NCBI GenBank assembly: GCA_964601215.1
Contig: CAZRMN010000002.1
Location: forward strand, 2,314-57,081
Direction: 5' to 3'
DNA length: 54,768 nt
DNA from: an uncultured archaeon
GTDB lineage: Archaea; Aenigmatarchaeota; Aenigmatarchaeia; CG10238-14; SCSR01
Part shown: piece after piece, positions 1,936-34,949 of the stretch
Layout of the letters: every line of letters begins with the position of its first letter
Position numbering within the stretch: the stretch's first letter is position 1
Program-made: the position numbers and the translations under genes
The notes under the pieces: model-generated
Databases searched by the model: none
The model's input: the letters and a program-made list of their open reading frames with translations, nothing else
What the model was told of the DNA's origin: nothing

Positions 1936-3258
1936 ATGTTCGATAGACTAAAAAATCTAAAAGATGTTATAAGAAGATTAGTTACTGGTACTACTATAGA
2001 TAAAAAAGCTGTAGAAGAAATACTAAAAGATTTGAAAACAATTCTATTGCAGGCTGATGTTGATTTAAAATTAACTGAGGAATTGATTGAAAGAATAAAA
2101 AAGAAATGCTTTGAACAAAAAATTCCCGCTGGCTTAACTCTTAGAGAGCATGTACTAAAAGTTATTTACGAGGAACTAGTCAATCTCTTAGGAGGGAAAC
2201 CTGCCAGTTTAATCGGAAAGAAAAAAATAATGTTTGTTGGACTTTTTGGTAGTGGGAAAACTACAAGCATAGCAAAACTTGGAAAATATTTACAAAAGCA
2301 AGGGTTAAAACCCGCTTTTGTCGCTTTAGATTACCATAGGCCTGCAGCTGTAGATCAATTAATTCAGCTAGCAAAACAAATTAATATCCCAGTTCATTTT
2401 GACGAAGGTGCAAACCCTTACAAAGCTGCAGAAGATGGATTAAACAAATTCAAGAATTACGATGCGATAATCTTTGATACTGCAGGGAGGAATGCTTTAG
2501 ACAAACAGCTTGCTGAAGAATTAAAAAAACTAGGAGAAATAATTAAACCAGATGAAGTTTTGCTTACAATTCCTGCTGATATAGGAAAAGTTGCTGGAAA
2601 ACAAGCAGAAGAATTCAACAATCTTGTTGGAATTACTGGAGTTGTAATTACAAGGATGGATGGAACAGCTAAAGGAGGCGGCGCACTAACTTCTTGTGCA
2701 GCTACTGGAGCAAAAGTCAAGTTCATAGGTACAGGAGAAAAGCTGGAAGATTTAGAAGTTTATGATCCAGAAAGATTTGTTTCTCGCTTGTTGGGTTTAG
2801 GTGACCTACAAACCCTTTTAGAAAAAGCTAAGGAAGCAGAAATTAAACCAGAAAAGGTTGAAAAAATAGTTGAGGGTAAATTCACTTTGAAAGATTTCTA
2901 TGAACAAATAGAAGCTTTAAGTAAAATGGGGCCGCTCAAACAAATTGCAAGCATGATTCCAGGTTTTGGAATGATAAAACTTCCAGAAAACTTGCTAGAA
3001 GTTCAGGAGGAAAAAATGAAGCATTTCAAATATATAATTCAAAGCATGACAGAAGAAGAAAGGGAAAATCCAGCAATAATCAATGCTTCAAGAATTAAAA
3101 GAATAGCAAAAGGTTCGGGAAGACCAGAATCTGAAGTAAGAGAACTTTTAAGTCAGTATGAAAAGATGAAAAAAATGATTAAAAGCTTTGGTGGAATGAA
3201 AGGTTTGAAAAGAGGAGCCTTAAAACAACTTGCAAAAAGATTTGGTTTTAAATTATGA
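1936..3258 (+). CDS. srp54: Signal recognition particle protein SRP54
   Basis: GLFGSGKTT, DTAGR, TRMDGTAKGGGAL, M-domain SMTEEERENP...SRIKRIAKGSG. Confidence 0.98.
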   Translation: MFDRLKNLKDVIRRLVTGTTIDKKAVEEILKDLKTILLQADVDLKLTEELIERIKKKCFEQKIPAGLTLREHVLKVIYEELVNLLGGKPASLIGKKKIMFVGLFGSGKTTSIAKLGKYLQKQGLKPAFVALDYHRPAAVDQLIQLAKQINIPVHFDEGANPYKAAEDGLNKFKNYDAIIFDTAGRNALDKQLAEELKKLGEIIKPDEVLLTIPADIGKVAGKQAEEFNNLVGITGVVITRMDGTAKGGGALTSCAATGAKVKFIGTGEKLEDLEVYDPERFVSRLLGLGDLQTLLEKAKEAEIKPEKVEKIVEGKFTLKDFYEQIEALSKMGPLKQIASMIPGFGMIKLPENLLEVQEEKMKHFKYIIQSMTEEERENPAIINASRIKRIAKGSGRPESEVRELLSQYEKMKKMIKSFGGMKGLKRGALKQLAKRFGFKL

Positions 3259-4100
3259 GAAATGTAATTTTCTTTTTCATTGGTATTTTTTTATTAACTC
3301 AAGCTTTAGGTTTATACGTCGGAGCTGAATATATAAATCTAATAAGAGTGGGGGCAGCTACTCCAGCCTTCGAAAATCCGGAAAATATTGAGAACTCGTT
3401 TATTCTAATTTTTTACATTCTTGTAACTACAGGAATAATAATTCTTGTTATAAAGTTCAAAAGAGTTTTGCTTAAGGTAATAGAAGCTTTAGCTGTATTC
3501 TTTGCCTCTTCTGTAACCTTTTGTGTTTTGTTTCCTGTAGAAATCTTTTACCTGCCAGTTTGTTTTTTCCTTTCACTAGCTCTAACTCTCTGGAAAGTTT
3601 TAAAGCCCAACGCAATAAATCAAAACTTAGCAGTAATTTTTTCAATCTCTGGAGCAGGCGCTTTACTTGGCGCGTCCCTAGGTTTTTTACCAGTTTTAAT
3701 ATTTATAATCGCTCTATGTGTTTATGATTTTATCTCTGTTTTTGTTACTAAACACATGAAATACATAGCAAAAGAAATTTCAAAAACACCTACAGCTTTT
3801 TCTGCAGCTTTTCCTTACAAATTTAAAAAACCGATTAAATTTGAAGTTGGAAAAAGAAAATTGAAAAAGAGATTTCACATCTACCAGCTTGGTGGTGGCG
3901 ATTTAGCAATACCTTTAGTTTTTTCAGTTTCTGTTTTAAAAGAATTTGGTTTGTTACAATCTATAGCTTCAATTCTTGGTGCATTAATTGCACTTTGTTT
4001 AACCATATACTTTGTCTTAAAAAAACCTGGAAGAGCTCTACCAGCTTTGCCATGGATAAGTTCTGGCATGCTGTTAGGGTTCTTAATTTCTCTTATTTAA
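3255..4100 (+). CDS. Presenilin/signal-peptide-peptidase family (GxGD) intramembrane aspartyl protease
   Basis: Multiple TM segments; YD (CVYDFISVF), LGGGD and PALP motifs intact. Confidence 0.9.
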   Translation: MRNVIFFFIGIFLLTQALGLYVGAEYINLIRVGAATPAFENPENIENSFILIFYILVTTGIIILVIKFKRVLLKVIEALAVFFASSVTFCVLFPVEIFYLPVCFFLSLALTLWKVLKPNAINQNLAVIFSISGAGALLGASLGFLPVLIFIIALCVYDFISVFVTKHMKYIAKEISKTPTAFSAAFPYKFKKPIKFEVGKRKLKKRFHIYQLGGGDLAIPLVFSVSVLKEFGLLQSIASILGALIALCLTIYFVLKKPGRALPALPWISSGMLLGFLISLI

Positions 4101-11723: not shown

Positions 11724-13289
11724 TCAAATAAATTTTGAAACATAAGGGCCTTCAAGTTTATAACCAAGTTTATAGTAATACTCTCTTACTCCAACTCCAC
11801 TAATTATTAAAATTTTATTCTTATCAAACTCTTCTTTAGAAATCCTTTCTGCTTCTTCTAACAGCTTCCTTCCAAATCCTTTATGTTGGAACGCTTCTTC
11901 TTTGAATTCACCTACTGGCACTAAAGGCCCATAAACATGGAGCTCCCTGATTAAAGCTGTTTTATGCGTTATTTCTTTTCTAAAAGGTTTGAAAGGAATT
12001 CTTAACCTTAAAAAGGCTATGAGAACATCATTTTTTATATCCTCAAAACTTAGGAATATTTCTCTTCCCCTAGAAGCATTATAATCAAGTCTACAAAGCT
12101 TTACATGCTTGAAATCTACTTTTACTCCTTTCATAGCTTTATGACCAACTTCCCTGTATCTTATTTCTTTTATCCTTATTCCCATTTTTTCTGCCCTTCT
12201 TTCCACGATTTCCCTCAGGTTTCCTTTTTTAACTCCTGCAACTATTTGATTTGCTGGTATATCCCTTTGAACTCTTATTATTCTGCAATATTTTGGTATG
12301 TATTCCATAGCTTTAGCTATAAGTTCAGCAGCTTTTTCTTCTGTCAAAGCTTTATACTCACCCCTTTTCCACATCTCATAGAGTTGTGTACCTTTTATCA
12401 CAAGCGTCGGATAAATTTTTAAAGAATCTGGTCTAAAATCTTCATTTTCAAACAAAATTTTAAATTGTTTCAAATCACTTTCAAAGTCAACGCCTGGCAA
12501 ACCAGGCATAATATGATAAGTGCATTTTAAGCATGAATCCTTCAAAAATTGCGTGGCTTTTTTAACCTCTTCTATAGTATGGATTCTATTTACTCTTTTT
12601 AACACTTCTGGATAAACTGATTGAACACCTATTTCTACTCTAGTAGTTCCTAGCTGAAGCATTTGATTTATGTGCTTTTGAAAGCAATAGTCTGGTCTTG
12701 TCTCTATTGTTAAGCCAGAACATCTTATTCTAGCTTTTTCGTTTAGTTTTAAAGCTTCTTCCAAGTTTTTTCCGTCTCTTCCGTTTAAAGCATCAAAAAG
12801 CCTTTTAACAAACCACTCTTGATACTCTTTTTCTAAAGCGTTAAAAGTTCCACCTATTATTATTAATTCAACCTTGTCAACTGGGTGACCCATTAGTTTG
12901 TACTGTCTAATTCTATCTTTTACTTGCAAAAATGGATCATAATTATTCCTTATCGCTCTTTGAACTGCAGGCTCTAAACCAGTGTAGCTTTGTGGTGCTT
13001 TTTCGCCTTTTGGACAATAAATGCATTTGCCAGGACATTTTGCAGGTTTTGCTACAACAGTAATTACTGTCACACCTGAAATTGTTCTAGTAGGTTTCAT
13101 CAAAAGAAACTCTTTGAGCTTTTCTTTTTCTTTTGAGCTGCAAGCTTGGAGAATCTGAACACTCGTTGGCATGCTTTTTAGCTTGTATTTCTTACAAATC
13201 CTTTTAACTATTCTCCAGACCTTTTTTCTAGTAAGTTTTTCTTTCTTCAACTCCTCAACAATTTCCCTGAGTATTTTTCTTTTTTCCAT
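11724..13289 (-). CDS. elp3: Elp3 tRNA uridine(34) acetyltransferase (radical SAM + GNAT)
   Basis: CPGKCIYCP, IGGTF, ETRPD, RELHVYG, QHKGFG..LL, GVGVREYY. Confidence 0.96.
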   Translation of the reverse strand: MEKRKILREIVEELKKEKLTRKKVWRIVKRICKKYKLKSMPTSVQILQACSSKEKEKLKEFLLMKPTRTISGVTVITVVAKPAKCPGKCIYCPKGEKAPQSYTGLEPAVQRAIRNNYDPFLQVKDRIRQYKLMGHPVDKVELIIIGGTFNALEKEYQEWFVKRLFDALNGRDGKNLEEALKLNEKARIRCSGLTIETRPDYCFQKHINQMLQLGTTRVEIGVQSVYPEVLKRVNRIHTIEEVKKATQFLKDSCLKCTYHIMPGLPGVDFESDLKQFKILFENEDFRPDSLKIYPTLVIKGTQLYEMWKRGEYKALTEEKAAELIAKAMEYIPKYCRIIRVQRDIPANQIVAGVKKGNLREIVERRAEKMGIRIKEIRYREVGHKAMKGVKVDFKHVKLCRLDYNASRGREIFLSFEDIKNDVLIAFLRLRIPFKPFRKEITHKTALIRELHVYGPLVPVGEFKEEAFQHKGFGRKLLEEAERISKEEFDKNKILIISGVGVREYYYKLGYKLEGPYVSKFI

Positions 13290-13386
13290 AATTTTCTATT
13301 AGAGTTGTTAAATAAATTATTAGGTCAATAATTACTATTCTTCAGTAGCGAAATCTTTAAATAGTGTCACTGAATAATAGTAACAT

Positions 13387-13542
13387 ATGAACCAGAAAAA
13401 CCTAGAAAACATAAGGTTCATAGAAGAACAACTTTTCCAAGCAAAGCAGGCTTTGTTCAATGCAAAAACAGTAAGAGAGGTAAAGTTTTTACAACAAAAG
13501 ATTGAATATCTTAGAAAAAGAGCAAAAGAGCTTAGGGGTTAA
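13387..13542 (+). CDS. Small orphan helical protein, 51 aa
   Basis: Manual translation MNQKNLENIRFIEEQLFQAKQALFNAKTVREVKFLQQKIEYLRKRAKELRG; occupies otherwise empty intergenic space. Confidence 0.6.
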   Translation: MNQKNLENIRFIEEQLFQAKQALFNAKTVREVKFLQQKIEYLRKRAKELRG

Positions 13543-13571
13543 AGAGTTTTTTGTTTTATATTTAAAAGAAT

Positions 13572-13590
13572 AAAAAAGCTTATATATTTC
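13572..13590 (+). promoter_or_regulatory. BRE-TATA promoter upstream of the asparagine synthetase leader
   Basis: AAAAAAGC-TTATATATTT about 25 nt before the first leader hairpin. Confidence 0.55.
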
Positions 13591-13608
13591 TGTAGACTAA
13601 AATGAGTG

Positions 13609-13714
13609 TGGGTCTTGTTCGAACCACCCATAAAACCAAAAACTAATTCTCCAAAGAGTTTCTTACCTAAAATCACTTTAGACCCCTCCCCTTCGAAAAA
13701 AAGGAGGGATTGAA
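13609..13714 (+). promoter_or_regulatory. Structured 5' leader with anti-SD hairpin
   Basis: TGGGT(13609-13)/ACCCA(13626-30); CCCTCC(13684-89)/GGAGGG(13703-08) covering the SD; alternative GGGTCT(13610-15)/AGACCC(13680-85). Confidence 0.55.
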
Positions 13715-14707
13715 ATGGAAATTTTAAAACAAACTAAAGAAAGGTATAAGATTTTAAACACTCCAGAAATACAAGCTTTAGCAAAAATAGAATCCTCCTT
13801 GCTAAAGGGTGCAAGAAAATATTGCGAAGAAAACGGATTTGTGGAAATAATTGCGCCACATTTAACAAAAGCTACTGGTGCATGCGAAAACATTGCAACT
13901 ATGTTTGAGCTAAATTATTTTGGACAGAAAGCATACCTTAGCCAAACAGGACAGCTATACTTAGAAATAATGACACCTTTTTTGAAAAAAGTTTGGTGTT
14001 TAATTCATAGTTGTAGAGCAGAACCAGAAGTTGATAACAGACATCTGACAGAATTCCCTTTAATAGAAATAGAATTCGAAGGAAATTTAAAAGAACTAAT
14101 GCATCACATCGAAGGAATTATTCATTCTATGGTGAGTAAAGTTAAAAAAAGGGAGGAAGAACTTGAAGTTTTTGGGATTGACAAACAATACTTAAAAAAA
14201 TTTGAACCACCTTACAAAAGGATTACCTATACACAAGCAATAGAAATATTAAAGGACGAGTTTCAGATAGAGTGGGGAGATGATATTAAAAGTAAGCATG
14301 AAAAATACCTTTCAAAGTTTTTGGGTATGAAACCATTCTTTTTGACACACTGGCCAAAAGCAATAAAATTTTTTAACATGAGGGAAAACGATGACAACCC
14401 AGATATAGTAAATAGTTGTGACCTAATCCTGCCGTTTAGTGGAGAAGCAGTTGGGGGAGCAGAAAGAGAATACAAATATGAAAAACTGAAAAGAAGACTT
14501 GAAGAATCGCTAATGTTAAAAATGCTGGTTGAAAGAGGTGGAAGTATAAAAGATTTTGAATGGTATCTCGACTTCCACAAGAACAATAGCATAAACTTAC
14601 ATTCAGGTTGTGGTATTGGTTTCAACAGAGTAACTCAATCGATTCTAAAACTAGATGATATAAGAGCGTCAACAGTTTTTCCTTTAAACAAAGAAATGAT
14701 AATGTAA
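13715..14707 (+). CDS. Archaeal asparagine synthetase / AsnRS2-like (class IIb aaRS catalytic core without anticodon-binding domain)
   Basis: YLSQTGQLYLE, RAEPEVDNRHLTEF (motif 2), EAVGGAERE, HSGCGIGFNR (motif 3); 330 aa with no N-terminal OB fold. Confidence 0.8.
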   Translation: MEILKQTKERYKILNTPEIQALAKIESSLLKGARKYCEENGFVEIIAPHLTKATGACENIATMFELNYFGQKAYLSQTGQLYLEIMTPFLKKVWCLIHSCRAEPEVDNRHLTEFPLIEIEFEGNLKELMHHIEGIIHSMVSKVKKREEELEVFGIDKQYLKKFEPPYKRITYTQAIEILKDEFQIEWGDDIKSKHEKYLSKFLGMKPFFLTHWPKAIKFFNMRENDDNPDIVNSCDLILPFSGEAVGGAEREYKYEKLKRRLEESLMLKMLVERGGSIKDFEWYLDFHKNNSINLHSGCGIGFNRVTQSILKLDDIRASTVFPLNKEMIM

Positions 14708-14747
14708 AAGATAAATAGTTTAGAAACTAATTTAAAGGTGGGTCTCG

Positions 14748-15692
14748 ATTACACAGGAAACTTCTTCTTTCAAGGGTAGAGATATAATCAGTTCAAGAGA
14801 TTTTTCACGTGAAGATCTTGAACTAATCTTTTCTGTTACAGACGAGGTTATAGCAAAACCAAAAAAATTTGAAAAAAAGCTGGAGGACAAGATAATTTCT
14901 CTACTCTTTTTTGAACCGTCTACAAGAACTAGGGATAGTTTCCAAACAGCAATTTTCAGGATGGGGGGTAAAACTTTAGGCTTTCCTGAGCCAGGCATTT
15001 CTTCTGTTAAAAAAGGTGAAAGCCTTAGGGATACTATAAGCATGTACGATAGTTATAGCGATTTGATAATTATGAGACATAAATGGGCTGGAGCAGCGAA
15101 GTTGGCAAGCGAAGTTGCAAAAAAACCAGTAATAAATGCTGGAGATGGGAACAGGGAACATCCAACTCAAGCAATGTTAGACTTGTATACTATTAGAAAA
15201 GTTATTGGCAGGTTGGATTCACTTAAGGTTGGTATACTTGGAGATTTAAAATATGGTAGAACAGGATCTTCTCTTAGTTATGGTTTGTCAAATTTTAAAG
15301 ATGTGGAGCTATTTTTTATATCCCCTCCAATCTTACAAATGAGGCCAGAGGTAAAACTTTTCTTAACCCTTAAAGGTATAAAATTCCATGAGACTACCAA
15401 TCCTTATGATGTTATTAAATATTTGGATGTGCTTTATGTGACAAGAATTCAAAAAGAAAGGTTTTCCGACCCTTCTGAATATGAAAAAGTAAGGGGAGCT
15501 TATATAGTAGATGAAAAATTAATCAATGAAGGAAAACCAGAGCTTAAGGTTATGCACCCATTACCAAGAATAGATGAAATTCCTTATGAAGTTGATAAGC
15601 TTCCGCAAGCAACTTATATTGGACAAGCTGAAAACGGGCCTTACGTGAGACAAGCACTTATAGCTCTTGTCATGGGTGTTTATGATGAATGA
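14748..15692 (+). CDS. pyrB: Aspartate carbamoyltransferase catalytic subunit; start probably non-canonical ATT at 14748
   Basis: FKGRDIIS, FFEPSTRTR, HPTQAMLD, VTRIQKER, MHPLPR; frame open back to TAA 14733-35, so the track start at 14961 truncates conserved sequence. Confidence 0.93.
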   Translation: MTQETSSFKGRDIISSRDFSREDLELIFSVTDEVIAKPKKFEKKLEDKIISLLFFEPSTRTRDSFQTAIFRMGGKTLGFPEPGISSVKKGESLRDTISMYDSYSDLIIMRHKWAGAAKLASEVAKKPVINAGDGNREHPTQAMLDLYTIRKVIGRLDSLKVGILGDLKYGRTGSSLSYGLSNFKDVELFFISPPILQMRPEVKLFLTLKGIKFHETTNPYDVIKYLDVLYVTRIQKERFSDPSEYEKVRGAYIVDEKLINEGKPELKVMHPLPRIDEIPYEVDKLPQATYIGQAENGPYVRQALIALVMGVYDE

Positions 15693-16179
15693 TAAAAGAA
15701 AGGAGCTAATAGTAAAGAAAATTGAAAATGGAACAGTAATAGACCATATACCAAAGGGTAAGGGTATAGTGGTTATGAGAATTTTAAGAGTAGATTGCAA
15801 CACAGAATGCTATCTTTTGCAAAATGTTGAGAGTAAAAAATTGGGCAGGAAAGATATAGTCAAAATAGTTGGAAGATATCCAAGCAAAGAAGAGGTAGAT
15901 GATATTGCAATAGTTGCACCTACAGCCACCATAAATTATGTTAAAAATTGGGGAATTTTTGATAAGTATAGAGTTAAACTACCAGAAAAAATAGAAGGTT
16001 TAATTAAGTGTCCAAACAACTTATGCATAACTAATCATGAAAGAGGTATGAAAACTGTTTTTAAAGTTTATCAATTCAAGAATGAGCTACTAAAAAATTT
16101 GTATGGAGACGTTTTACTTCAATGTTCTTATTGTGATACTTTAGTAAAGCATGAAAATATAGAGGAACTTTTGATATAG
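15685..16179 (+). CDS. pyrI: Aspartate carbamoyltransferase regulatory subunit
   Basis: KIENGTVIDHI, KDIVKI, APTATIN, CPNNLCIT...CSYC zinc site. Confidence 0.95.
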   Translation: MNDKRKELIVKKIENGTVIDHIPKGKGIVVMRILRVDCNTECYLLQNVESKKLGRKDIVKIVGRYPSKEEVDDIAIVAPTATINYVKNWGIFDKYRVKLPEKIEGLIKCPNNLCITNHERGMKTVFKVYQFKNELLKNLYGDVLLQCSYCDTLVKHENIEELLI

Positions 16180-16265
16180 CCCCGCCCGGATTCGAACCGG
16201 GGTCGCGAGGTCCAGAGCCTCGCATGCTTGACCATTCTGCTCCTGAAGATCTACACCACGGGGCT
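16177..16265 (-). tRNA. tRNA-Gln(CTG) with a 16-nt D-loop insertion (putative intron 15/16)
   Basis: AGCCCCG/CGGGGCT acceptor stem, CGAGG-CTCTGGA-CCTCG, CCCGG-TTCGAAT-CCGGG; extra ATCTTCAGGAGCAGAA between G15 and T16. Confidence 0.92.
16235..16250 (-). other. Putative non-canonical tRNA intron at 15/16
   Basis: Removal restores an ordinary AG-TGGTCAA D-loop; length fits BHB geometry (1 + 9-nt hairpin + 4 + 2) with 3 of 4 central pairs. Confidence 0.75.
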
Positions 16266-16403
16266 ACATTTTAAATATATAAGAGGAATAATATTAAAAA
16301 GGTGTAAGGAATGAAGGGTGAATTACAAACATTCTAGCTTATCTATTTCTCTTTTAAACCAATTCTTAAGTTTAAAAATTAAAAGTATTTTAAGGGGATT
16401 AAA

Positions 16404-18260
16404 ATGAGAATACTTCAGTTGCACTCAGATTTTATTGAATATGAACTAATAAAAAAAGAAATCCCTCAAGCAGAGGAAAAAAAGAAAAAGAAAGAGAAAT
16501 TTGAAAACATACTTGTTTTGTTTACTTGTGTAGAAAAAGGCGATAATAAAAAAACTGCTAAAAAAGCTATTGAAGAAACAAAAAATTTTCTCAAAAAATT
16601 AAAACTAAATAGAATTTTAATTTATCCCTTTGCTCATTTAAGTCCAAACTTAGCTAAACCCCAAGATGCTCTAGAAATTATAAAAAAAATGGAAAAGTGT
16701 GCAAAAAAACTTAAAATTGAAGCTTATCGTGCCCCATTTGGTTGGAATAAAGCTTTACAAATTAAAGTGAAAGGCCATCCTTTAGCCGAGCAATTGAGAA
16801 CGATAACTTCAGAAGGAAAAGAAGAAAAAATTTCAAAAGCTTTGAAAGCAGAGAAAAAAATAAAATCTTATTGGTACATATTAACTCCAGAAGAAAAACT
16901 AATACCAGTTGAAAAATTTGACTTTTCTAGGTTTATAAACTTAAAAAAATTTGCTGATTATGAAATATCTAAGGTTAGAGCGGTTCAACAAATTCCTCCT
17001 CATGTTACATTAATGAAAAAGCTGGAAATAGCGGATTATGAACCTGGTTCAGACCCAGGAAACATGAGATGGTACCCAAAAGGTAGACTAATTAAATCCT
17101 TGCTCGAAGAGTTTGTCACCAAAAAAGTTATTGACTATGGAGGAATGGAAGTTGAAACTCCTGTGATGTACGATTTCCAACATCCTGTTTTAGAAAGTTA
17201 TTTGAACAGATTCCCAGCAAGACAATATGTAGTGAAATCGGATAAAAAAGAATACTTCTTGAGGTTTTCAGCATGTTTTGGTCAATTTTTAATGGCACAT
17301 GACACAAAGATTTCTTACAAGCAACTACCTTTCAGAATTTATGAACTTACAAGATATAGCTTCAGAAGAGAAAAAAGTGGGGAACTTGTTGGATTAAGAA
17401 GATTAAGAGCTTTTACTATGCCTGATGTTCATGCTATTTGTGCTGATTTAAAGCAAGCTATGGAAGAATTCAAAAGAAGATTCGACCTTTGTGTAGAGGT
17501 ATTAAAGGGGATTGGTTTAGAGAAAAAAGATTATGAACTAGCAATAAGAGTTACAAAAGATTTTTATGAAAAACACAAAGAATTTGTTTTTTCCCTGGTC
17601 AAAAAACATGGAAAGCCAGCTTTGGTTGAAATGTGGGATGAAAAATTCTTCTATTTCATCCTTAAGTGGGAGTTCAACTTTGTGGATAATTTGAATAAAG
17701 CTTCTGCTCTTTCTACAGATCAGATTGATGTAGAAAATGGAAAAAGATATGGAATAACTTATGTTGATAGGAATGGAAAGAAGCATTACCCAATTATTTT
17801 ACATTGTTCGCCAAGTGGTGCAATAGAAAGATGTATATATGCAATACTAGAAAAAGCTTATGCTGATAAGAAAAAGGGTAAAGTACCTCATTTTCCTTTA
17901 TGGTTATCACCGACCCAAGTTAGATTAATTCCTCTTTCCGACGAATACATAAAAAAATGTGAAGAAATAGCAAAGGAATTGGAAGAAAAAAGAATAAGAG
18001 TTGATATAGACGATAGGAAAGAAACTGTGGAAAAAAGGATAAGGGAAGCTGAAATTGAATGGGTTCCTTACATTTGTATAATAGGAAAAAAAGAAGTTGA
18101 AAAAAACATTTTATCAGTAAGAATAAGGGAAGAAAAGAAAATAAAAGAAATGAGTGTTGAAGAGCTTGTTAAAACCATAAGTGAAAAAACAAAAGATAAA
18201 CCATTCAAAAAACTATCCTTACCTAAAAAAATCTCTGAAAGACCTGTTTTTGTTGGTTAA
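16404..18260 (+). CDS. thrS: Threonyl-tRNA synthetase, archaeal type with N-terminal editing domain
   Basis: MRILQLHSDFIEY, RAPFGWNKA, LRFSACFGQF, LRRLRAFTMPDVH, LHCSPSGAIER. Confidence 0.97.
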   Translation: MRILQLHSDFIEYELIKKEIPQAEEKKKKKEKFENILVLFTCVEKGDNKKTAKKAIEETKNFLKKLKLNRILIYPFAHLSPNLAKPQDALEIIKKMEKCAKKLKIEAYRAPFGWNKALQIKVKGHPLAEQLRTITSEGKEEKISKALKAEKKIKSYWYILTPEEKLIPVEKFDFSRFINLKKFADYEISKVRAVQQIPPHVTLMKKLEIADYEPGSDPGNMRWYPKGRLIKSLLEEFVTKKVIDYGGMEVETPVMYDFQHPVLESYLNRFPARQYVVKSDKKEYFLRFSACFGQFLMAHDTKISYKQLPFRIYELTRYSFRREKSGELVGLRRLRAFTMPDVHAICADLKQAMEEFKRRFDLCVEVLKGIGLEKKDYELAIRVTKDFYEKHKEFVFSLVKKHGKPALVEMWDEKFFYFILKWEFNFVDNLNKASALSTDQIDVENGKRYGITYVDRNGKKHYPIILHCSPSGAIERCIYAILEKAYADKKKGKVPHFPLWLSPTQVRLIPLSDEYIKKCEEIAKELEEKRIRVDIDDRKETVEKRIREAEIEWVPYICIIGKKEVEKNILSVRIREEKKIKEMSVEELVKTISEKTKDKPFKKLSLPKKISERPVFVG

Positions 18261-26650: not shown

Positions 26651-28443
26651 CCGAAGTATTTTTAGATGGAAGATACATTGGTGAAACAAACAACCCAAAA
26701 GCTCTTGTAAAAGAAATTAGAGAAAAAAGAAGAAATGGACTTATTTCTCCACAAATAAACGTTGCTTATCATGAACACTTAGATGAGGTAAGAATTCTAA
26801 GCGATTCTGGAAGAGTAAGACGTCCGCTAATTATTGTTGAAAATGGAAAACCAAAACTTACAGAAGAACATATAGAAAAGTTGAAGAAGGGTGAACTCTC
26901 ATGGGAAGACCTAATCAAAAGTGGGATAATTGAATACCTAGATGCAGAAGAAGAGGAAAACAGTTATATAGCACTAAAACCTGAAGAAGTAACGAACGAA
27001 CATACTCATTTAGAACTAGACCCTTCGGTAATCCTTGGTCTGTCTGCATCTTTCATTCCTTACCCAGAGTTTAACAGAGGAGATAGGGTAAACTATGGTG
27101 CAAAGATGGTTGGTCAAAGTATTGGAATTTTTGCAACCAACTACATGAATAGAGCTGATACTAAATCAAACATTATGGTATATCCTCAAATACCACTTGT
27201 CCAAACCCATGCGCATAAAATAATAAACTATGAAAAGCATCCAAACGGAGCTAATGTTATTATAGCAGTTGCTAGTTTTGAAGGTTATAATATGGAAGAT
27301 GCTTTAATAATAAATGCTAGTTCGATCCAAAGAGGTTTGTTCTGGACTTATATGTTTAGGACTTATGAAGCTGAAGAAAAAAGATACATGGGTGGGCAGG
27401 AGGATATAATAGGAATACCAGAACCTGGTGTGAGAGGATATGCTGGAGAAGATGCTTATAAACATTTGCCAGAAGATGGAATAGTAAATCCTGAAACTAT
27501 AGTTAATTCAGATGATGTTTTAATTGGAAGAATTTCACCACTTCGATTCTTAGGTACTATGGACCAATTCATCACAGGAATAGAAAATATAAGGGAAACT
27601 TCTGTAAGACTTAGACACGGTGATTCAGGAATTGTTGATAAGGTAATAATAACTGAAACTATAGAAGGAACAAAGCTAGTTAAAGTAACCGTAAGAGACC
27701 TCAAAATTCCAGAAATAGGAGATAAATTTGCAAGTAGGCATGGACAAAAAGGTGTTGTAGGATTAATAGTTCCTCAAGAGGATATGCCTTTTACTGAAAA
27801 TGGAATTGTACCGGATATAATTTTTAACCCGCATGGAATACCTTCTAGAATGACTATGGGACAACTATTGGAAATTATTGCTGGAAAGGTTGCCGCACTT
27901 TCTGGAAAGTATATACATTCACCTGCTTTCAATCCAGTACCCGAAAAAGAATTGAGAAGTTTACTCGAGGCTTATGGTTTTAGAAATGATGGGAAGGAAA
28001 CGATGTATGATGGAAGGACTGGAAAGAAATTCGAAGCACAAATTTTCATAGGAAGTTGTTTTTACCAAAAACTTGATCATCTTGTTTCGAATAAAATTCA
28101 TGCAAGGTCTAGAGGTCCAGTAACACTTTTGACTAAACAACCAACAGAAGGAAGAAGTAAAGAAGGTGGACTTAGACTAGGGGAAATGGAGAAGGATTGT
28201 TTAATAGCACATGGTGCTGCTTTAACCTTAAAAGAAAGGTTTGATTCTGATAGGACTGTTGTCCCTATATGTAGCCAGTGTGGTCTTGTCGCAATTCACG
28301 ACAAAATTAAAAACAGAAAATACTGTCCTGTTTGTGGTGATTCTAAAATTATTGATGTTGAAATGAGTTATGCTTTCAAGTTAATGCTAGATGAGTTAAA
28401 AAGCATGCTCATTTATCCGAGAATAATTTTGAGGGAAGATTAA
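26647..28443 (+). CDS. rpoB1: RNA polymerase subunit B' (Rpo2C)
   Basis: GYNMEDA, GDKFASRHGQKG, HARSRGP, GGLRLGEME, C-terminal Zn ribbon. Confidence 0.97.
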   Translation: MTEVFLDGRYIGETNNPKALVKEIREKRRNGLISPQINVAYHEHLDEVRILSDSGRVRRPLIIVENGKPKLTEEHIEKLKKGELSWEDLIKSGIIEYLDAEEEENSYIALKPEEVTNEHTHLELDPSVILGLSASFIPYPEFNRGDRVNYGAKMVGQSIGIFATNYMNRADTKSNIMVYPQIPLVQTHAHKIINYEKHPNGANVIIAVASFEGYNMEDALIINASSIQRGLFWTYMFRTYEAEEKRYMGGQEDIIGIPEPGVRGYAGEDAYKHLPEDGIVNPETIVNSDDVLIGRISPLRFLGTMDQFITGIENIRETSVRLRHGDSGIVDKVIITETIEGTKLVKVTVRDLKIPEIGDKFASRHGQKGVVGLIVPQEDMPFTENGIVPDIIFNPHGIPSRMTMGQLLEIIAGKVAALSGKYIHSPAFNPVPEKELRSLLEAYGFRNDGKETMYDGRTGKKFEAQIFIGSCFYQKLDHLVSNKIHARSRGPVTLLTKQPTEGRSKEGGLRLGEMEKDCLIAHGAALTLKERFDSDRTVVPICSQCGLVAIHDKIKNRKYCPVCGDSKIIDVEMSYAFKLMLDELKSMLIYPRIILRED

Positions 28444-33791: not shown

Positions 33792-34949
33792 TCAAATTGT
33801 AATTACCTCTGTCTCTTTTAAAGCATCTTTAACAAGCTTTTTAATTTTAAGATTTTTCTCAAGAGTTTTTATTTTTTTAGGGTCTGATTTAGTTGCAGGA
33901 TGCTTTGGAACAAACAAACTGCAACAGTCTTCTTGAGGTTTTATTGAAATACCATAAGTCCCTATTTTTTTAGCCAAGTCAATTATTTCAACTTTATCCA
34001 TTCCCAAAAGAGGTCTAAAAACTTGCAATTTTGTAGCTTCAGCAATAGTTGTAATATTATCTAAAGTTTGCGAAGAAACTTGAGCAAGGTTCTCTCCTGT
34101 TACTAAAGCTTTTATTCCTTCTTTTTTCGCAATTTCTTCAGAAATTCTAAGCATGAATCTTCTGTAGACGATTATCCTATACTTTGCAGGAATTTTTGTT
34201 TTGACTTGAGTTTGAATTTTATGAAAAGGAATGAAATAAACTTTGCTTTTAAACTGAAATTGGTTTAAAACTTTTACTAACTCTTTCGTTTTTTCAATAC
34301 TTGCTTTAGAAACTAAAGGGAAAGAATGGAAGTGAACAAAAACAACTTTACAACCACGCTTCATCATTAGCCAAGCTGCAACAGGAGAGTCTATCCCACC
34401 TGAAATTAAGGATAAAACTTTTCCAGAAGTACTTACAGGTAAACCACCAAGTCCTTTAATTATTTCAGTATAAACATAAGTATCTTTTCCTCTGACCTCA
34501 ACAAAAATTTCTTTGTCAGGATTTTTAAGGTTAACTTTCCTTTTCACCACACTTCCAAGAACGCTTGCTAATTCCTGACTAGTATACTTATGTTCACCAA
34601 CTCTTTTCACTCTAACAGCAAAAGTTTCATTTTTCTTTATCCATTTTTCATAGTTTTTTTCGATAAAACTTTTAATTCTTTCTAATTTTGAAGTTTTTAA
34701 ATGAAATGCTGGAGAAAAAGAAACAATACCAAAAATTTTTTTTAAAATTTCACAAGATTCTTCTAAATCCCAAACTTTAAGAAAAATTCTTCCTCTTTCT
34801 CTTTTTATTTTTACTTTTATGTTTTTTAGCCTGAAAGCTCTTTTGATATTTTCAACAAGTTTTTTTTCATACATTTTTGCGACAAACTCTGACTTAAGAA
34901 ATATCTCGCCATATCTTACAAGAATTAATCTTTCAAGCATAAAACCCAC
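33792..34949 (-). CDS. thiI: tRNA 4-thiouridine synthase ThiI (THUMP + PP-loop, no rhodanese domain)
   Basis: RYGEIFLKS, GGLPVSTSG, SGGIDSPVA, GENLAQVSSQT, EDCC. Confidence 0.95.
   Translation of the reverse strand: MGFMLERLILVRYGEIFLKSEFVAKMYEKKLVENIKRAFRLKNIKVKIKRERGRIFLKVWDLEESCEILKKIFGIVSFSPAFHLKTSKLERIKSFIEKNYEKWIKKNETFAVRVKRVGEHKYTSQELASVLGSVVKRKVNLKNPDKEIFVEVRGKDTYVYTEIIKGLGGLPVSTSGKVLSLISGGIDSPVAAWLMMKRGCKVVFVHFHSFPLVSKASIEKTKELVKVLNQFQFKSKVYFIPFHKIQTQVKTKIPAKYRIIVYRRFMLRISEEIAKKEGIKALVTGENLAQVSSQTLDNITTIAEATKLQVFRPLLGMDKVEIIDLAKKIGTYGISIKPQEDCCSLFVPKHPATKSDPKKIKTLEKNLKIKKLVKDALKETEVITI

Follow-up and report, generated by a model that had tools for sequence, protein, structure and literature searches.

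Introduction

In bacteria, the infC gene, encoding initiation factor IF3, provides one of the closest described parallels to the gene considered here; it is an essential gene that combines a good Shine-Dalgarno (SD) sequence with an AUU start, and the weak codon sets its level of expression (as outlined in parts of PMC4705826). We analyzed pyrB, the gene of the catalytic chain of aspartate carbamoyltransferase (ATCase), in a stretch of 54,768 nucleotides (nt) of contig CAZRMN010000002.1 from an uncultured archaeon of the Aenigmatarchaeota; this whole stretch is referred to as the window, and positions are those of the window unless stated otherwise. We find that pyrB of this lineage has lost its canonical start codon and, in an evenly balanced judgment, that its translation would start at an AUU codon at 14748, directed by the SD sequence AAGGTGG. 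The likeness to infC goes only so far. IF3 itself discriminates against AUU, which creates a feedback loop, whereas PyrB takes no part in initiation and feedback is not apparent. Likewise, the discriminating factor in archaea is aIF1, and the AUU of infC is conserved, whereas here it would represent a derived rescue of a lost start in two of 91 pyrB genes.

A different arrangement is known from prfB, encoding release factor RF2, in which a programmed +1 frameshift takes place at a CUU-UGA-C slip site with an SD-like stimulator 3 nt upstream. A short open reading frame (ORF) at the 5' end of pyrB similarly ends at a stop codon following a re-pairable codon (GGG-TAG-A compared with CUU-UGA-C), yet pyrB has no SD-like stimulator, the site is not conserved in its relatives, and the stop codon bears no link to the function of the product. 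At the promoters of B. subtilis pyrG and E. coli pyrBI, short homopolymer runs at the transcription start site sense CTP and UTP (cytidine and uridine triphosphate; 10.1101/732214). The present gene resembles them in that it is a pyrimidine gene whose predicted initial transcript would consist of three identical bases followed by a pyrimidine (compare the relevant part of 10.1101/732214), but the bacterial systems depend on bacterial RNA polymerase and sigma and result in attenuation or abortive synthesis, while the start site at pyrB is a prediction. Finally, in Deinococcus deserti, as at this locus, annotation truncates genes whose true start is not ATG, GTG or TTG (PMC2830850); there, in a bacterium, N-terminal proteomics provided proof at the protein level, whereas the start of pyrB is predicted from sequence. 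A start-less but living pyrB would add a case to known non-canonical initiation, and the conserved GTGGGTC cassette found with it deserves experiment.

An ATCase gene without a canonical start codon

The organism occurs in vent samples; its genome comprises 717,062 bases in 51 contigs and has an estimated completeness of 89%. In the window, pyrB lies downstream of an asnA-like gene (13715-14707) and has an intact pyrI directly 3' of it (Table 1). The pyrB frame (frame 0) is closed upstream by a TAA at 14733, after which it reads AGG TGG GTC TCG ATT ACA CAG GAA ACT TCT TCT TTC AAG GGT AGA GAT ATA ATC, and no ATG, GTG or TTG occurs in frame between this TAA and the ATG at 14961, where the public gene calls begin (P0001, 243 amino acids, 7 member sequences). 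The stop-to-stop frame matches the Pfam domains OTCace_N (PF02729, E 7.5e-43, residues 15-154) and OTCace (PF00185, E 1.5e-24, residues 163-311), and its product shares 54-57% identity with named ATCases of archaea such as Pyrococcus. Judged by these matches, pyrB is the ATCase catalytic chain, with both domains inside the translated part together with the motif STRTR, which we take to be the carbamoyl-phosphate-binding motif. Because the OTCace_N match opens at codon 15 of the stop-to-stop frame, that is at 14778, and because STRTR would be lost from a protein beginning at 14961, this ATG is not the true start and the 243-residue call is truncated. Given that the truncated call is left without the carbamoyl-phosphate site, the pyrimidine pathway of this DPANN lineage could be mistaken for defective in metabolic reconstructions.

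Table 1. Features at the pyrB locus of the window
Feature	Position	Strand	Basis or remark
Second GTGGGTC copy, opening the asnA-like leader (gene at 13715-14707)	13608..13614	+	20 nt behind TTATATAT
Putative TATA-like box ATAAATAG	14711..14718	+	At -27 to -20, counted from the G of GTGGGTC
TAA closing the pyrB frame upstream	14733..14735	+	In-frame stop
Shine-Dalgarno sequence AAGGTGG	14735..14741	+	16S pairing, genome consensus
AGG where relatives start with NTG	14736..14738	+	GTG in G030, TTG in G021, M/L in P0005/P0002
GTGGGTC motif	14738..14744	+	DNA-level conservation at the pyrB 5' end, nine genomes
Out-of-frame ORF, GTG...GGG TAG	14738..14779	+	13 sense codons (VGLDYTGNFFFQG), TAG 14777-79
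ATT, proposed start codon	14748..14750	+	SD spacing, position kept in motif loci
pyrB coding sequence as proposed, 314 codons and TAA 15690-92	14748..15692	+	Both Pfam domains
Strain polymorphism A/C	14759	+	Glu to Asp in pyrB frame, Asn to His in GTG frame
STRTR motif	14919..14933	+	Upstream of first canonical start
First canonical in-frame start, ATG	14961..14963	+	In the ORF listing, only a 243-residue ORF opens here
pyrI (regulatory chain), overlapping the end of pyrB	15667..16179	+	Name from reading of the translation

An earlier note on this DNA had described the missing canonical codon, the AAGGTG at 14735-40 with 7 nt to ATT 14748, and the 13-codon ORF opened by GTG, and all of its coordinates are correct. 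Two further explanations of the reading frame were tried and rejected. Readthrough from, or fusion with, the upstream gene is ruled out, as the frame-0 codons 5' of TAA 14733 reach a TAG at 14721 without a start and the asnA-like gene lies in another frame. For a bulge-helix-bulge mini-intron, a scan of 14690-14830 returned 27 relaxed candidates, none of which with a length of 1 mod 3 keeps FKGRDIIS. Known RNA families in 13200-15200 and tRNAs in 12000-17000 gave nothing above chance.

The missing start codon is real and derived

The absence of a canonical start is a property of the sequence itself and not an assembly artefact. Two Joint Genome Institute (JGI) contigs from two other metagenomes (L040 and L046), of a strain about 99% identical, bridge the whole site in an identical arrangement with no indel; over 14633-14830 their sole departures from the window are at 14641-42, 14728 and 14759, and within 14733-14790 no base other than 14759 (the A/C polymorphism) varies. 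Sequencing runs were compared as Logan contigs. The start-less arrangement is found again in the contigs of three runs from different studies, and in those of four runs from four studies no indel is reported; no RNA run was among those listed as containing the stretch. The contig of run X3 starts at 14738 and shows 8 substitutions and 0 gaps over 14738-15300, and that of X4 leaves out 14690-14917. In X1 and X2 the contigs are interrupted at 14754, 14760 and 14772, probably because of the single-nucleotide polymorphism (SNP) at 14759; an indel polymorphism was first suspected behind these breaks and was dropped, since the SNP accounts for them. The earlier note had called for a search for an indel or substitution at the start, and L040, L046 and the Logan contigs reveal no error that would restore ATG or GTG.

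We searched 371 genomes of the phylum for pyrB (E <= 1e-55) and read all 91 5' ends that were found. An in-frame ATG, GTG or TTG lies shortly before the conserved core in 88 of the 91, including three (L067, L078 and L080) whose ATG is close to the core, within the last eight codons read. One locus (L097) was mis-anchored and is uncounted, and two, that of this genome and that of G024, have no canonical start. Compared with three congeners, G024 carries one extra base just after their GTG (GTGGGTCCCAATTAAC vs GTGGGTTCCATTAAC), and its GTG frame, GTG GGT CCC AAT TAA, stops after 4 codons. The closest genome relative has a pyrB no nearer than 54% identity; nearer are the metagenome proteins P0002 (71% identity, N-terminus LWVSIQSEIEPILSFKGRD), P0004 (67%, MGTLISGNPWRSRD) and P0005 (61%, MWVVISKDLASSFKGRD), the first codons of P0002 and P0005 being known only as residues L and M. 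Frame 0 of this pyrB, WVSI...SSFKGRD, matches the N-termini of its closest orthologues (LWVSI..LSFKGRD and MWVVI..SSFKGRD). Most likely, the ancestral start was an NTG directly before TGG GTC, at the site of the present AGG behind TAA, and on this alignment the loss of the canonical start is a derived state in this lineage. According to the earlier note, a canonical start in all relatives would speak against an unusual one; relatives do mostly have a canonical start, with one locus uncounted, and we read this as derived loss and not as an artefact.

The start-less 5' end is present in both strains, the window and L040, whose pyrB genes show 14 differences, 9 of them synonymous and 5 non-synonymous. 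Among random changes, roughly three in four are non-synonymous. As far as sequence tells, pyrB is under purifying selection and still translated.

Proposed initiation at an AUU codon behind a Shine-Dalgarno sequence

We propose that the NTG TGG GTC of relatives (M-W-V-) became AGG TGG GTC directly behind TAA. The T-to-G difference that removes the NTG start also turns the relatives' TGTG into AGGTG, and the same change would have created AAGGTGG, a good match to the SD consensus of this genome. The ribosome would then start at the in-frame AUU at 14748, 7 nt past the SD sequence, yielding a protein of 314 amino acids that begins MTQETSSFKGRDIIS. Because AUU is a weak start, the output per mRNA would probably be low.

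The near-cognate codon ATT 14748 is preceded by an SD sequence complementary to the genome's own 16S rRNA, and the distance between the two is one found at other genes as well. The 3' end of this 16S rRNA is GGATCACCTCCTTA (also given as GGATCACCTCC), and the consensus 5' of 554 long ORFs is AAGGTGA at -11 to -5. At pyrB, GGTG begins at -11 of ATT 14748, the second most frequent place in the genome (among 555 ORFs, onset at -9 in 27, at -10 in 6, at -11 in 8 and at -12 in 4). The predicted duplex of AGGTGG with the 16S tail before ATT 14748 has an energy of -8.5 kcal/mol, a value reached by 6.8% of 266 unambiguous starts; only the tail of the distribution is used, as duplex energy is a weak genome-wide discriminator (median -2.45 kcal/mol for true starts and -2.6 for internal ATT codons). 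By the same prediction, AGG 14736 and GTG 14738 reach -0.1 kcal/mol, and ATA 14784 and ATC 14787 reach -4.7 through AAGGGT (14772-77).

Comparison with relatives points in the same direction. The motif GTGGGT(C/T), which overlaps the SD sequence, occurs at the pyrB 5' end in nine loci, namely those of this genome, four members of genus g25, G030, two members of g22 and G025. Its GTG is in frame in four of these and one base out in five, including this genome; the motif is, by this comparison, conserved as nucleotides, whatever the reading frame, and not as protein. In all nine loci a start-like codon stands in frame 3-4 nt past the motif (five times ATT, twice ACG, once each ATA and TTG); start-like codons of these types make up 13.8% of the codons of this genome, and ACG 5% of its Thr codons. 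A start-like codon at a fixed place is suggestive of AUU use, although the Ile may be no more than inherited. The same layout with a canonical start is found in four pyrB genes of family f33 (GGGTCG-YRT-TTG/GTG) and in thiI of the window (GTGGGT-TTT-ATG). WV.I is kept in P0002, P0005, G024 and G030, and the following residues, about eight, vary in sequence and length, as would fit if the nucleotides (site plus start), and not the protein, were constrained. G024, the other start-less pyrB, also has an ATT at the same place.

Several observations weigh against initiation at AUU. The energy of -8.5 kcal/mol is also reached by 2.6% of 6334 internal ATT codons, which gives the chance rate; a clear SD sequence is present in only about one gene in ten of this genome, and the modal GGTG spacing is -9 and not -11. 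Seven of the nine motif loci also carry an in-frame GTG, TTG or ATG upstream, and there the near-cognate codon may do no more than specify Ile or Thr. Moreover, the nine loci amount to only about five independent lineages. Archaeal aIF1, that of Sulfolobus, discriminates against AUU in vitro (reported in part of PMC4705826). Lastly, if the mRNA starts inside the GGG of the motif, most of the SD sequence would not be transcribed from that promoter, and it would work only on transcripts reading through from the asnA-like gene. As for loose start selection through a missing aIF1, it is ruled out, the factor being present in this genome (SUI1, 68.7 bits).

Of the two mechanisms put forward in the earlier note, ATT initiation is the better supported, with the pairing of the SD sequence, its spacing and a start-like codon at the same in-frame position in nine loci on its side, whereas the +1 frameshift has neither a stimulator nor a shared shift site.

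Other routes of translation

Translation could instead begin at another near-cognate codon, AGG 14736, AAG 14772 or ATA 14784/ATC 14787, the last two of which might be reached by re-initiation after the stop TAG 14777 of the 13-codon ORF. AGG is the positional homologue of the NTG in G030, G021, P0002 and P0005, yet it has no SD sequence, as its duplex energy indicates, and AGG is among the poorest near-cognate start codons. ATA and ATC have AAGGGT ahead of them, and many archaeal PyrB proteins begin just 2-4 residues before KGRDVIS; these two codons, however, lie inside the Pfam domain (from 14778), and a start there would drop the FKGRD that is conserved in the aligned N-termini. On balance we regard a start at any of these codons as unlikely.

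A further route would be a start at GTG 14738, perhaps at the very 5' end of a leaderless mRNA, followed by a +1 shift at TTT-C (14768) or at GGG-TAG-A (14774), which would produce MGLDYTGNFFF(K/QG)RD... and the peptides MGLDYTGNFFFK or ...FFFQGR. Shift-prone codons are present in both places, GGG representing 10% of Gly codons; the steps from GGG to GGT and from TTT to TTC preserve tRNA pairing, and GGG stands before a stop. Four of the nine motif loci have GTG GGT in the pyrB frame (three g25 genomes, MGSIN.., and G025, MGLL..), P0004 also begins MGTLISGN, the ACA GGA AAC TTC of the GTG frame resembles the ACA GGA AAT TTC of G084, and the TATA-like box 27-20 nt upstream would permit a transcript beginning near GTG. 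Against this, no SD-like stimulator precedes either slip site (none in 14755-14773), no RNA family matches in 13200-15200, and GTG 14738 lies inside the SD sequence with none of its own. The 13-codon ORF is not conserved, and all other relatives need no shift; in G024 the first ORF has only 4 codons in another context, so that the two start-less genes share no common shift site. Frame 0, in turn, matches the closest orthologues through WVSI...SSFKGRD. The SNP at 14759 is non-synonymous in both frames and favours neither. Taken together, we consider a frameshift quite improbable.

The GTGGGTC motif and the predicted 5' end of the mRNA

In an anchored comparison, a TATA-like 8-mer lies at -27 to -20 of the motif in all nine pyrB loci (28-21 nt upstream in G025). 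Upstream of the 554 long ORFs, an A+T-rich TATA-like signal is found at -34 to -24 of the start codon, which suggests that many genes of this genome are leaderless. At pyrB a TATA-like box is present, but the transcript predicted from it would begin with an out-of-frame GTG or with no start codon. When a promoter matrix was derived from the genome's own gene starts, its score was highest at 14740-42 (99.5-99.9th percentile of background) and peaked again at 14749; as the matrix is weak and the region A+T-rich, this prediction of the mRNA start is tentative. The step from T to G before GGG is the only pyrimidine-purine step common to all nine loci. If transcription starts inside GGG, AGG and GTG would be absent from that mRNA and AUU would lie 6-8 nt from its 5' end.

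A general role of GTGGGTC as a start-site or SD motif is ruled out by its abundance and placement: 8 copies are found genome-wide compared with 17 expected from base composition, and GGGTC lies within -45 to +6 of only 4 of 645 gene starts. A separate occurrence is seen at thiI (34938-34949, minus strand), where TAA GTGGGT TTT ATG places the motif 3 nt before a bona fide ATG, with TTTTTAAA about 30-23 nt upstream.

The leader of the asnA-like gene also opens with the GTGGGTC motif. Five true orthologues of this gene from other genera (G007, G115, G006, G021 and G063; 60-75% identity; L113-L117) carry GTGGGTC, AGTGGGTC or GTGGGGTC, 17-22 nt behind a TATA-like box. The codon directly after the motif is TTG in this genome and TTG or ATG in the orthologues (ATG in G115), except for TCT in G063, and it is in frame with the asnA-like gene in G007 and G115. 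In relatives the asnA-like gene and pyrB are not neighbours; they lie on separate contigs in G021, and no pyrB was found in the other four genomes. Both enzymes consume aspartate. Shared by the genes of these two enzymes while the start codons around it drift, the GTGGGTC cassette is a candidate promoter-proximal element; a factor site, an initiator and an initially transcribed signal are all candidate roles.

One such role would be control of pyrB at the mRNA 5' end. Transcription would start inside the GGG of T-GGGTC, and the choice of start site, or reiterative addition of G at low UTP or CTP, would alter the leader and thereby the use of the weak start. The fixed distance between GTGGGTC and the TATA-like box in nine pyrB and six asnA-like loci is in keeping with such control, as are the matrix peak at 14740-42 and the order of bases, GGG followed by U and C, such runs being used by bacterial pyrG and pyrBI (10.1101/732214, in the part cited above). 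On the other side, in a limited search of the literature at the level of titles and abstracts no reiterative transcription was found described in archaea, the asnA-like gene has no pyrimidine link, and the effect on the frame would be opposite in loci with an in-frame GTG. We give control of this kind a low probability.

The wider form of this proposal is similarly doubtful. In it, pyrB and the asnA-like gene of this archaeal order would be driven by a shared cassette (TATA, 19-21 nt, GTGGGTC), with mRNA beginning from GGG, a leader of 5-8 nt and, in pyrB, a weak start codon (AUU, AUA or ACG) at a fixed offset, so that PyrB output would be set by events at the 5' end. The upstream NTG picked by gene callers would then lie outside the mRNA. 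Examples of such events would be a nucleotide-sensitive choice of start site, or reiterative G at GGG-UC, by which a G-rich leader that pairs with the anti-SD sequence would grow longer under UTP or CTP shortage. If true, it would be the first nucleotide-sensing control of transcription initiation described in archaea.

Loss of translation and sequence error

It is also conceivable that pyrB is untranslated or barely translated, as after a recent loss of the start in a pathway dispensable to a reduced, symbiont-like archaeon. No pyrB match was obtained in 280 of the 371 genomes searched (it was found in 91), and the loss of the start is derived, as this explanation would have it. Against this weigh the 9 synonymous changes among the 14 between strains, a frame open over 314 codons in an A+T-rich, stop-prone genome, an intact pyrI and the recurrence of the start-less form in samples of several studies, and we see only a slim chance that translation has ceased. 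Least credible by far is an assembly or sequencing error concealing a normal start, which could call upon the contig breaks of X1 and X2 and the opening of the X3 contig at 14738, whereas L040 and L046 match the window at every base of 14733-14830 save 14759 and no indel appears in four runs.

Other genes with unusual starts or interruptions

pyrB is not alone in this genome. Outside the window, contig C33 (+ strand, 3060-3572) carries a DUF460 gene (Pfam E 8.4e-35, match from codon 8) whose conserved GIDPG N-terminus is likewise preceded by no ATG, GTG or TTG. Its first canonical start is codon 34, and an in-frame CTG at 3078 follows AGGTG at a distance of 5 nt. Near-cognate starts behind strong SD sites thus seem to be tolerated by this organism even though it has aIF1. 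Given the lost start, continued selection, the parallel in G024 and this second start-less gene, pyrB would offer a clean natural case for archaeal AUU tolerance.

Two pyrB genes of family f25 (L085 and L087, in G227 and G226) read GGGGGTG TTTTT ATT AGC AGA GAT, that is, an SD sequence, 5 nt, and an ATT directly before SRDIIS. Their only canonical start is a TTG 16 codons upstream, which would add a hydrophobic tail unusual for PyrB, and they may represent another ATT start.

On contig C15, minus strand, at about 435 in the oriented sequence (outside the window), a 237-codon ORF contains the LAGLIDADG-like VHIGDGNM, lacks a canonical start throughout its first 30 codons and matched no Pfam family. 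On contig C1, forward strand, 27445-27466 (outside the window), rtcB is split between HFGY and GFPIGG by 29 nt containing a perfect 22-nt palindrome, GCTTATAAGTATACTTATAAGC. The flanks of this insert, GGCT/GGCC, would form a 4-bp helix with 3-nt bulges, resembling a bulge-helix-bulge intron.

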